From positions 1-48,144 of the forward strand of contig CAZOYD010000024.1 of NCBI GenBank assembly GCA_964583985.1: 48,144 bases of DNA, in the 5' to 3' direction. Positions within the stretch are counted from its first letter, which is position 1. Each line of letters begins with the position of its first letter. This stretch comes from an uncultured archaeon (GTDB lineage Archaea; Asgardarchaeota; Lokiarchaeia; Sigyniarchaeales; SOKP01). Positions 43,834 to 45,507 of the stretch are shown in pieces. Made by a program: the position numbers and the translations under genes. Under the pieces are notes generated by a model. That model saw only the letters and a program-made list of their open reading frames with translations. It was not told where the DNA came from and ran no database searches.

Positions 43834-44727
43834 GTGATCAAGATTTTTACTACTTATTCGATAAAACTCAAAGATGATCCAATCTCAAGTAATATTCCCC
43901 AGAATGTGATTGGGATTGATTTAGGTCAGAGTCTTACTAAAATAGCATATCTACATAATAACGATTTGTGCCTATCAATCCATCCTACGCATGATAATTA
44001 TCAATATATTAATAAATATATAGTAGATAACAACCTAACTAACATGAAATTAAATCTAACTGGAGGAAAAGCTTATTACTACCAGAAACAACTTTCTCAT
44101 GACCATAAATCGAACATTTTTAACGAATTTGAAGCAAATGTCAGTGGAATTGACGTTCTTTTCAATCTTATAAAGTCAAAAAATCTTCCTGAAACTCTTA
44201 TTACCACAATTGGAACTGGATCATCCATGATCTTAAAAAAAGAAAGTTATGAGCATATTGGAGGATCAGCACTTGGAGGAGGCTTTTTTATGGGTTTAAT
44301 TAAATTGTTATATAACATCACGAGTTATAAGGAGGCAATAGAATTATCCGAACAAGGAGATCGTTATAAAGTTGATTTAAGAGTTGCTGACATATATTCT
44401 CCCGAAGATCAAAGAATTGATGCAATTTTTCGTGAATTTACAGCTGCATCATTAGGAAAAATTAACTCACGAGATAAAATTGAACATTACAATAAAGAAG
44501 ATCTTTTGAATTCACTCATCTGCATGATAGGAGAAAATATAGGGACAATAGCAGTTGAGCTAGCTAAAAATCATAATATAAAGAACTTGATTTTTTGTGG
44601 AGGTTTTGTATCAAATAATAAAACATTGAAGCAAGTTCTCACGATACTATGTACAATTAGCAAAAAAAAGGCAATATTCTTGAATCATTCCACATTTGCG
44701 GGAGCAATCGGAGCATTGAAATTATAA
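43834..44727 (+). CDS. coaW: Type II pantothenate kinase (fumble/PanK family)
   Basis: GIDLG.SLTK, LTGG, NEFEA, IGTGSS, HIGGSALGGG.F.GL, GDR.KVDL.V.DIY, AASLGK and GAIGAL motifs; start uncertain. Confidence 0.85.
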   Translation: MIKIFTTYSIKLKDDPISSNIPQNVIGIDLGQSLTKIAYLHNNDLCLSIHPTHDNYQYINKYIVDNNLTNMKLNLTGGKAYYYQKQLSHDHKSNIFNEFEANVSGIDVLFNLIKSKNLPETLITTIGTGSSMILKKESYEHIGGSALGGGFFMGLIKLLYNITSYKEAIELSEQGDRYKVDLRVADIYSPEDQRIDAIFREFTAASLGKINSRDKIEHYNKEDLLNSLICMIGENIGTIAVELAKNHNIKNLIFCGGFVSNNKTLKQVLTILCTISKKKAIFLNHSTFAGAIGALKL

Positions 44728-44800
44728 TGTATGCCCATTTGGAGACCTCAAATCATCGTCTTTTTAGTAAAATCTCATAGAGGAACTATAAAATGGGCAC
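44728..44800 (-). ncRNA. Archaeal single-hairpin box H/ACA guide sRNA (predicted target: LSU rRNA helix 69 uridine, E. coli U1911 equivalent)
   Basis: Lower stem GUGCCCAUUU/AAAUGGGCAU is followed directly by ACA; pocket UAUAGUU/UCUCC; upper stem CCUC/GAGG; K-turn UGA...GAUGA; 15 nt from pocket top to ACA; TATA-like TTTAATAA at 44830-44823. Confidence 0.8.
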
Positions 44801-44853
44801 AAAAATAGTAGGATATATAGTATTATTAAATTTGGTATTCCTTTAAGAAAAAC

Positions 44854-45507
44854 TCAGATTGACTCGGAATGTTTTGTAAGCAAATCTTCGTTGGTCCGTC
44901 CTAATTTAATTGCTAATTCAGCTATAATGGCATCTAAATAGGTAAAAGCGACTTGTTCAAAAGCTGTTCCTTCGGGAGTTAGCAATGCAGTATCATCGTG
45001 GCGATCTGTCAGGTCGATCTTTGTACGTCCTTTTAATTTAATGGTAACATCTCCAACCCGCCCAATTATGGTTTCTGGATGGGAGGTTATGGTTATTATC
45101 CCATAAGGTTTTATAGTATTCACGTAACTCTTTAGCAAGCTTACAACGATGTTAGTTGTTCCCGAACCAGATAAAACAATGAGGAGATCATCCTTGGTTA
45201 AAGCAGGCATGCTCGCTAAATTAGTAACCATATAAACTTCAGCACCTAAATGAACTAATCGGGTAGCAAAACACTGTAAAATGAATGCAGAACGCCCAGA
45301 TGCCAATAAGAAGAATTTTCTCTTGTTTTTTAATCCATCATACACTAATTCTATGAAATGCTGCGTATGCTCGAAATGTTTCGGTTTCATGAGATGTTCC
45401 ATATTTTCTTGAAGATTCTTCATGATGAGCTCCATGGATTGAAATAATATTTCTTTAGCCTTCCCATTTACTGGTTTCCCAGTTGCTGCATTGGTTTTAT
45501 CTGCCAT
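44854..45507 (-). CDS. hxlB: 6-phospho-3-hexuloisomerase (SIS domain)
   Basis: GRSAF....FA.RL.HLG, DLLIVLSGSG.T, ITS.PE and P.GTAFE motifs. Confidence 0.85.
   Translation of the reverse strand: MADKTNAATGKPVNGKAKEILFQSMELIMKNLQENMEHLMKPKHFEHTQHFIELVYDGLKNKRKFFLLASGRSAFILQCFATRLVHLGAEVYMVTNLASMPALTKDDLLIVLSGSGTTNIVVSLLKSYVNTIKPYGIITITSHPETIIGRVGDVTIKLKGRTKIDLTDRHDDTALLTPEGTAFEQVAFTYLDAIIAELAIKLGRTNEDLLTKHSESI

Follow-up and report, generated by a model that had tools for sequence, protein, structure and literature searches.

A conserved small RNA gene of Loki-type Asgard archaea, predicted to encode a single-hairpin box H/ACA guide for pseudouridylation of 23S rRNA helix 69

Genomic context of the small RNA gene

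A spacer of 126 nt separates two open reading frames (ORFs) in the window (the whole 48,144-nucleotide stretch of DNA that we analyzed), and it holds a predicted small RNA gene (Table 1). Read directly from the window, the minus strand from 44800 to 44728 gives 73 nt whose sequence agrees with the transcription in the initial annotation. That annotation placed the RNA between convergent coaW and hxlB genes, and neighbors of these types are indeed present: a Fumble kinase-like ORF on the plus strand and a SIS-domain, hxlB-like ORF on the minus strand. The RNA and the SIS gene share a strand, with the RNA 53 nt further downstream, and the RNA is convergent with the kinase gene. The stop codon of the kinase-like gene (44725-44727, plus strand) abuts the minus-strand ACA box, so that the region where the RNA terminates and the 3' end of the kinase-like gene overlap. 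The distance between the kinase stop codon and the RNA varies among relatives from a few nt to about 40 nt.

Most genomes of the same family retain the order SIS gene, RNA, kinase gene. In another genus, several genomes carry an inverted SIS gene that diverges from the RNA, and in the sister family neither a SIS nor a kinase neighbor occurs within 2.4 kb of the RNA. Given this inversion and the absence of both neighbors from the sister family, the RNA is not simply the 3' UTR of the SIS mRNA.

A TATA-like box had been reported upstream of the RNA. We locate it as a candidate, TTTAATAA, at 44830-44823, corresponding to positions -30 to -23. With the RNA 5' end as anchor, the sequences upstream of 39 dereplicated homologues are A-rich from -34 to -31, almost free of G and C from -30 to -23, and carry a U at -1. 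In a genome as AT-rich as this one, the BRE/TATA-like signal upstream of the RNA is suggestive only.

Table 1. Coordinates of the predicted small RNA gene, its structural elements, and the flanking features in the window.
Feature	Coordinates	Strand	Remarks
Whole single-hairpin box H/ACA sRNA (predicted)	44728..44800	-	Covariance-model match spans identical coordinates, 84.5 bits
Kinase-like ORF	43834-44727	+	Pfam Fumble / type II pantothenate kinase-like, 164 bits
SIS-domain protein ORF, hxlB-like	44854-45507	-	Upstream neighbor
Candidate BRE/TATA promoter, AAA + TTTAATAA	44823..44833	-	-33 to -23 of the RNA 5' end
Lower stem, 5' strand (RNA positions 1-10)	44791..44800	-	Pairs with 44731-44740
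Pocket 5' strand UAUAGUU (5' guide)	44784..44790	-	Complementary to helix 69 ACUAUA (E. coli 1913-1918)
Upper helix H2, 5' strand CCUCUA	44778..44783	-	Pairs with 44746-44751; one U.U mismatch in the window copy
K-turn non-bulged strand: U (3n), G (2n), A (1n), then C-stem G	44774..44777	-	Conserved
Apical stem-loop, distal K-turn C-stem and loop	44759..44773	-	Variable among homologues; A/U-rich self-complementary arms retained
K-turn bulged strand: C (C-stem), GAU bulge (first base variable), GA, U (3b)	44752..44758	-	Conserved
Upper helix H2, 3' strand UUGAGG	44746..44751	-	Partner of 44778-44783
Pocket 3' strand UCUCC (3' guide CUCC)	44741..44745	-	Complementary to helix 69 GGAG (E. coli 1907-1910), which immediately precedes the target U
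Lower stem, 3' strand (RNA positions 61-70)	44731..44740	-	Partner of 44791-44800
ACA box	44728..44730	-	15 nt past the pocket-closing C-G pair, 14 nt past the U.U layer

Conservation across Asgard genomes

A DNA search of 40 related genomes returned 8 clear homologues. In 3 of these relatives the BLAST match is exactly the proposed 73 nt (query 61-133): it shares the 44728-44800 boundaries and includes nothing beyond them. For more distant searches we used two covariance models, R1, made from an alignment of nine same-genus copies (A1), and R2, made from an alignment of 49 diverse copies (A3). R1 detects one copy each in 106 of 130 same-family genomes, which represent ten genera, and a weak match in 1 of 14 sister-family genomes. 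R2 detects one copy in 23 of the 24 same-family genomes sampled, as well as in 1 of 2 sister-family genomes. A search of other Asgard genomes for covarying homologues, the check suggested at the outset, has therefore been run: homologues occur throughout the same family, and their stems covary. We rejected a repeat or mobile element as an explanation because the R1 search finds one copy per genome.

Across 124 genomes of other Asgard families, R2 yields only one marginal match (E 0.07), which has a different 5' pocket; we do not claim the RNA family there. The match (L159:1501-1582, in genome G267 of another Asgard family) shares the architecture, with a lower stem of 10 bp, a K-turn reading UGAG ... 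C-AUA-GA, and the 3' pocket UCUC, but its box is GUA and its 5' pocket diverges. It may be a different H/ACA-like guide.

Searched against Rfam, the whole window yields no match at gathering score, and the segment from 44600 to 44950 yields none even at E up to 10. Our literature search found no paper describing an H/ACA guide RNA in Asgard archaea. On comparative sequence evidence, the locus is a conserved small RNA gene of Loki-type Asgard archaea that is missing from Rfam.

Stems, covariation, and folding

The single sequence leaves the question of structure unsettled: the minimum free energy fold differs in its interior from the H/ACA fold, and the two have energies of -18.5 and -13.3 kcal/mol, respectively, the latter with K-turn and protein terms excluded. 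The minimum free energy fold retains the 10-bp lower stem; its z value is -2.72, and 1 of 200 shuffles is equally good. RNAalifold applied to nine same-genus sequences recovers two stems only, with little covariation, and we therefore widened the sample.

Across the 49-sequence alignment, both partners vary in 14 of the 18 stem pairs of the model. Standard pairs fill 96.9% of cells, compared with 88.3% in column shuffles, and 0 of 500 shuffles reach the observed values; the alignment was fitted to the covariance model, which favors the structure, but the margin is nonetheless large. As a control, sliding the partners by 1-3 columns leaves only 32-56% of cells paired.

The lower stem has the 10 bp initially described and ends in a G.U pair. 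Nine of its ten pairs change on both sides among the 49 homologues, with 98.1% of cells paired. Most copies begin its 5' strand with GUGCCCA, part of another genus with GCGCCGA, and a third genus with GCACCUG; in the sister family the strand starts with UAGCCAAGAG, a wholly different sequence that still pairs. Each of these 5' variants comes with a matching 3' strand, as compensatory change requires. In the upper helix, 5 of 7 pairs change on both sides. Here the comparative data correct the initial annotation, which had drawn a helix of 4 bp: the helix comprises six positions (CCUCUA/UUGAGG), with one U.U in the window copy, and is followed first by a non-canonical layer and then by the tandem G.A pairs. 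At the level of sequence, covarying stems around invariant single-stranded bases form the pattern expected of a guide RNA.

Pocket, K-turn, and ACA box

The bipartite pocket proposed earlier is present in the window copy, with strands of 7 nt and 5 nt. The published descriptor of such pockets specifies two single strands of 5-11 nt each (PMC2377435). In the family consensus, a closing G.U pair leaves 5-6 nt on the 5' side and 4 nt on the 3' side, the latter slightly below the descriptor. The pocket bases are near-invariant: AUAGU is found in 48-49 of 49 homologues, as is CUCC.

The K-turn was likewise read correctly: its 5' strand carries GA and its 3' strand C-GAU-GA. Its polarity is the expected one: the bulged strand is the 3' strand, and an invariant G-C pair opens the C-stem. 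On the non-bulged strand, the A and the next G are conserved in 49 of 49 homologues and G2n in 43 of 49. On the bulged strand, the counts are C 49, A 48, U 49, G 49, and A 49 of 49, while the first bulge base is variable. The K-turn in the upper stem is a predicted L7Ae site.

Counted from the C-G pair, the ACA box lies 15 nt below the top of the pocket, the distance given initially. In most copies of the family it lies 14 nt from the closing G.U pair, made up of 4 nt of 3' pocket and 10 nt of lower stem. The first position of the box is A in 46 of 49 homologues and the third in 39 of 49, and most homologues read A-N-A. About 10 of 49 have ACU, GCU, AUU, or another variant that is not ANA, which means that ACA is not strictly required in the family.

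Layers of the GA stem were counted by hand. The family shows ten stacked layers: the closing G.U, 6 pairs, a non-canonical layer (U.U, A.A, or U-A), and 2 G.A. In the window copy a U.U takes the place of the closing G.U and another U.U lies further inside; two C-G pairs partly offset these. In published archaeal guides, ten layers are stacked, the first being the pocket-closing pair and the last the second G.A; the ANA box lies at 14-15 nt, and the lower stem measures 7-9 bp (PMC4652768). An H2 of 5-6 bp and an ANA box rule are also described (PMC2377435). The archaeal H/ACA layout invoked in the initial annotation is borne out by the geometry, which fits the first of these sources in its ten layers and 14-15 nt spacing and the second in H2 and ANA. 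The RNA carries each of the elements that define an archaeal box H/ACA RNA: a lower stem of at least 7 bp, the pocket, the K-turn, the ten layers, and the ANA distance.

Predicted target in helix 69

Neither a covariance model nor a search with a 19-nt helix 69 pattern, allowing 2 mismatches, found 23S rRNA in this assembly of 138 contigs; we therefore infer the cognate target from the rRNA of relatives. The assembly (G000) is rated 100% complete by marker genes, yet neither a 23S rRNA nor any piece of helix 69 is present in it. Nine 23S rRNAs of related archaea, four from the same genus and five from elsewhere in the same order, agree in helix 69, which reads CGGGAGUAACUAUAACUCUC. It contains GGGAG-UA-ACUAUA, the target that had been predicted from the guide. 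CUCC can pair with GGAG (4 bp) and UAUAGU with ACUAUA (6 bp), which places U1911 and A1912 unpaired between the two duplexes, in the canonical arrangement.

We scanned one same-genus 16S and 23S rRNA for sites that match the pocket. Helix 69 is the top site, with 10 Watson-Crick pairs; the runner-up scores 8 and includes a G.U pair. This second-best site lies at about position 511 of the same-genus 16S rRNA (L094) and reads GGGA-[U]A-AUUAU, with 4+5 pairs. When pockets are shuffled, 97 of 2000 (about 5%) reach an rRNA site at least as good, so the target match alone is only marginal and the case does not rest on it.

Changes in the guide add further information. A same-genus subgroup has the guide CUCCC, which gains a fifth pair with GGGAG. 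In the sister family, the guide GUUAUAGU forms eight pairs with ACUAUAAC, and the 3' guide is shortened to CUC. One copy with a UUCC guide preserves the pairing through G.U. The invariance of the guide, together with lineage-specific changes that track helix 69, strengthens the assignment of the target. The duplex of the 3' guide, at 4 bp, is short; this is the duplex that matters most (PMC2377435).

The initial annotation described the target as lying in a eukaryote-like context, a label that comes down to one base pair: A1909-U1921 replaces a G-C pair, while position 1918 is A, as in bacteria. We give the label little weight.

In yeast, the 1911-equivalent position is not known to be modified. 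U1911 of E. coli is a pseudouridine, and Psi3727 of human 28S rRNA is its equivalent (PMC2875026). In Haloarcula, pseudouridines in helix 69 occur only at the equivalents of 1915 and 1917, three being found in 23S rRNA overall, and the equivalent of 1909 is Gm (PMC2584109). This Gm lends indirect support to the earlier statement that many archaea read GGGGG in helix 69.

Two observations concern the rRNA genes of the relatives. A tenth 23S locus, L040 (G015:C263) from a same-genus MAG, has the bacterial form of helix 69, GGCCGUAACUAUAACGGUCC, and an archaeal-model score of 1829 versus about 2550 bits; the contig is probably a contaminant of the bin. Furthermore, the 23S gene spans about 3.33-3.37 kb in the window's genus (L031, L032, L035, L036) versus about 3.1 kb in the sister family (L033, L034, L038), a gap that suggests lineage-specific expansion segments.

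Proteins and proposed mechanism

The host genome encodes the four proteins Cbf5, Nop10, Gar1, and L7Ae. Cbf5 comprises DKCLD, TruB_N, TruB_C_2, and PUA domains. Nop10 scores 49.1 bits, Gar1 29.8 bits against a cut-off of 29.3, and L7Ae 79.5 bits, all in the same genome.

The mechanism that we propose is modeled on the H/ACA family. The RNA would be transcribed from its own promoter and assembled with these proteins into an RNP. L7Ae would bind the K-turn of the upper stem. Cbf5, with Nop10 and Gar1, would bind the lower stem, and its PUA domain would hold the ACA tail. The 3' guide CUCC would pair with GGAG (1907-1910) and the 5' guide UAUAGU with ACUAUA (1913-1918) of 23S helix 69. In this manner, U1911 and A1912 would be left unpaired at the top of the pocket, and U1911 would be isomerized to pseudouridine.

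We put at roughly 0.83 the probability that the minus strand from 44800 to 44728 encodes a stand-alone, single-hairpin archaeal box H/ACA sRNA that guides pseudouridylation of U1911 in helix 69. The initial annotation had arrived at an H/ACA guide as well, and this reading draws support from the covarying stems, the invariant pocket and K-turn, the geometry, the proteins, and helix 69 of the relatives.

Alternative explanations

The closest alternative accepts a genuine H/ACA RNA and questions its target: U1911 of helix 69 may not be the target, or not the sole one. The RNA would then act on a tRNA, on 16S rRNA, or on an mRNA, or it would serve as a non-catalytic chaperone of rRNA folding. Several points lend this idea some weight. 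The helix 69 match is marginal when taken alone, 16S position 511 offers a weaker site (4+5 pairs, G.U included), the scan was confined to rRNA, and one pocket can guide up to three sites (PMC2377435). Helix 69 is nevertheless the best match composed entirely of Watson-Crick pairs, the guide bases are invariant, and the lineage-specific changes extend pairing with helix 69 specifically. In addition, the 1911 site is a pseudouridine both in E. coli and in human 28S rRNA (PMC2875026). On balance, we hold another target, or an additional one, to be unlikely. The RNA could instead be a cis-acting K-turn element of the SIS-domain (hxlB-like) mRNA, whether a 3'-UTR stabilizer, a terminator, or an L7Ae-binding hairpin. 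It does lie 53 nt downstream of that gene on the same strand, most of the family's genomes share this arrangement, and K-turn operators that bind L7Ae are known. A UTR, however, has no need of an invariant pocket complementary to rRNA, of an ANA box at 14-15 nt, or of a GA stem of 10 layers. The opposite-strand, diverging SIS gene in several genomes of another genus, the lack of either neighbor within 2.4 kb in the sister family, and the BRE/TATA-like signal at -33 to -23 also speak against a cis element, and we judge it highly improbable.

A functionless chance hairpin in an AT-rich spacer would be in keeping with the unremarkable single-sequence z of -2.72 and with the lack of an Rfam match. 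That explanation is refuted by conservation in over 100 genomes, where 14 of 18 pairs show compensatory changes. We also considered a box C/D sRNA and rejected it: the sole GAUGA sits inside the RNA, in the 3' half of the upper stem, the 3' end has no CUGA, and the RNA is without terminal C/D boxes. A box H/ACA guide directed at helix 69 is the reading that we retain.

Comparison with known guide systems

The predicted Asgard guide most resembles the single-hairpin sRNAs of Pyrococcus (Pab91, Pab160/Pf9; '10/5/9', '10/6/9'; PMC2377435, PMC4652768). Both have one hairpin with a lower stem, a two-stranded pocket, an upper stem that ends in a K-turn 10 layers above the pocket, and an ANA box 14-15 nt from the closing pair; both are matched to an rRNA target in which a U and the next base stay unpaired, and the set of four proteins is the same. 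The differences lie in detail and in origin. The Asgard RNA is of a '10/4/10' or '9/5/10' type, with a lower stem of 10 bp and a 3' pocket of 4-5 nt, whereas the canonical Pyrococcus type ('10/5-6/9') has a lower stem of 7-9 bp and a pocket strand of 5-6 nt. It shows no sequence or covariance-model similarity to the Pyrococcus RNAs detectable with Rfam at E up to 10. Its host belongs to a different clade, and its predicted target is helix 69.

Among archaeal H/ACA guides aimed at the helix 69 loop of 23S rRNA, the one characterized closely is sR-h45 of Haloferax volcanii (PMC7075261, PMC5029457). It comprises two stem-loops and is responsible for Psi1940 and Psi1942 (E. coli 1915 and 1917) as well as Psi2605. 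The Asgard RNA, in contrast, has one stem-loop and is predicted to act on the 1911 equivalent, a site absent among the three 23S pseudouridines of Haloarcula (PMC2584109).

Eukaryotic H/ACA snoRNAs use the same chemistry and the same guide principle on a nearly identical target helix. They differ in having two hairpins (H + ACA), in lacking a K-turn, and in using Nhp2 instead of L7Ae. Yeast snR191 serves the 1915 and 1917 equivalents, and a human guide serves Psi3727, which is listed as the 1911 equivalent (PMC2875026). Shared guide bases alone are insufficient, and homology with the eukaryotic guides therefore does not follow from them.

Bacterial RluD makes the pseudouridines at U1911, 1915, and 1917 of helix 69 (for the sites, see PMC2875026). 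It is a protein-only enzyme that uses no guide RNA, whereas the Asgard RNA is a predicted guide for the first of these sites.

Implications and natural variants

The RNA family supplies the R2 covariance model and a concrete, testable prediction, namely a single pseudouridine, placed in a ribosomal helix of central functional importance, in the archaea most closely related to eukaryotes. Most descriptions of archaeal H/ACA guides concern Euryarchaeota and Crenarchaeota. If true, the prediction would give the third "bacterial" site of helix 69 a guide in archaea. We entertain, as a tentative and rather doubtful extension, that the 1911 equivalent is RNA-guided in Loki-type Asgard archaea, such that the guide-based helix 69 pattern of animals was already in place on the archaeal side of eukaryogenesis, and that natural guides of the classic type can recruit Cbf5 without the PUA-ACA anchor, as the sister lineages that keep the whole RNA intact after losing the ACA box would imply. 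The RNA family leaves the known H/ACA mechanism unchanged; its natural ACA-less variants could inform how Cbf5 is positioned.

The ACA-less homologues come from several lineages: L090, L091, and L084-L087 belong to the same genus, L069, L072, and L083 to another genus, and L158 to the sister family. Their boxes read ACU, GCU, AUU, or UCU, while stems, pocket, and K-turn are intact. Their lower stem is shorter, at 8-9 bp, and their box follows at a distance of 12-13 nt. Two ACA-less copies occur together in one genome, G046. In genus g17 (L074, L075, L076, L078, L081, L088), the box is AAA or AUA, and a G+C-rich hairpin (GGGAGCC ... GGCUCCC) lies directly 3' of it. This hairpin could be a second domain, a terminator, or a neighboring RNA.
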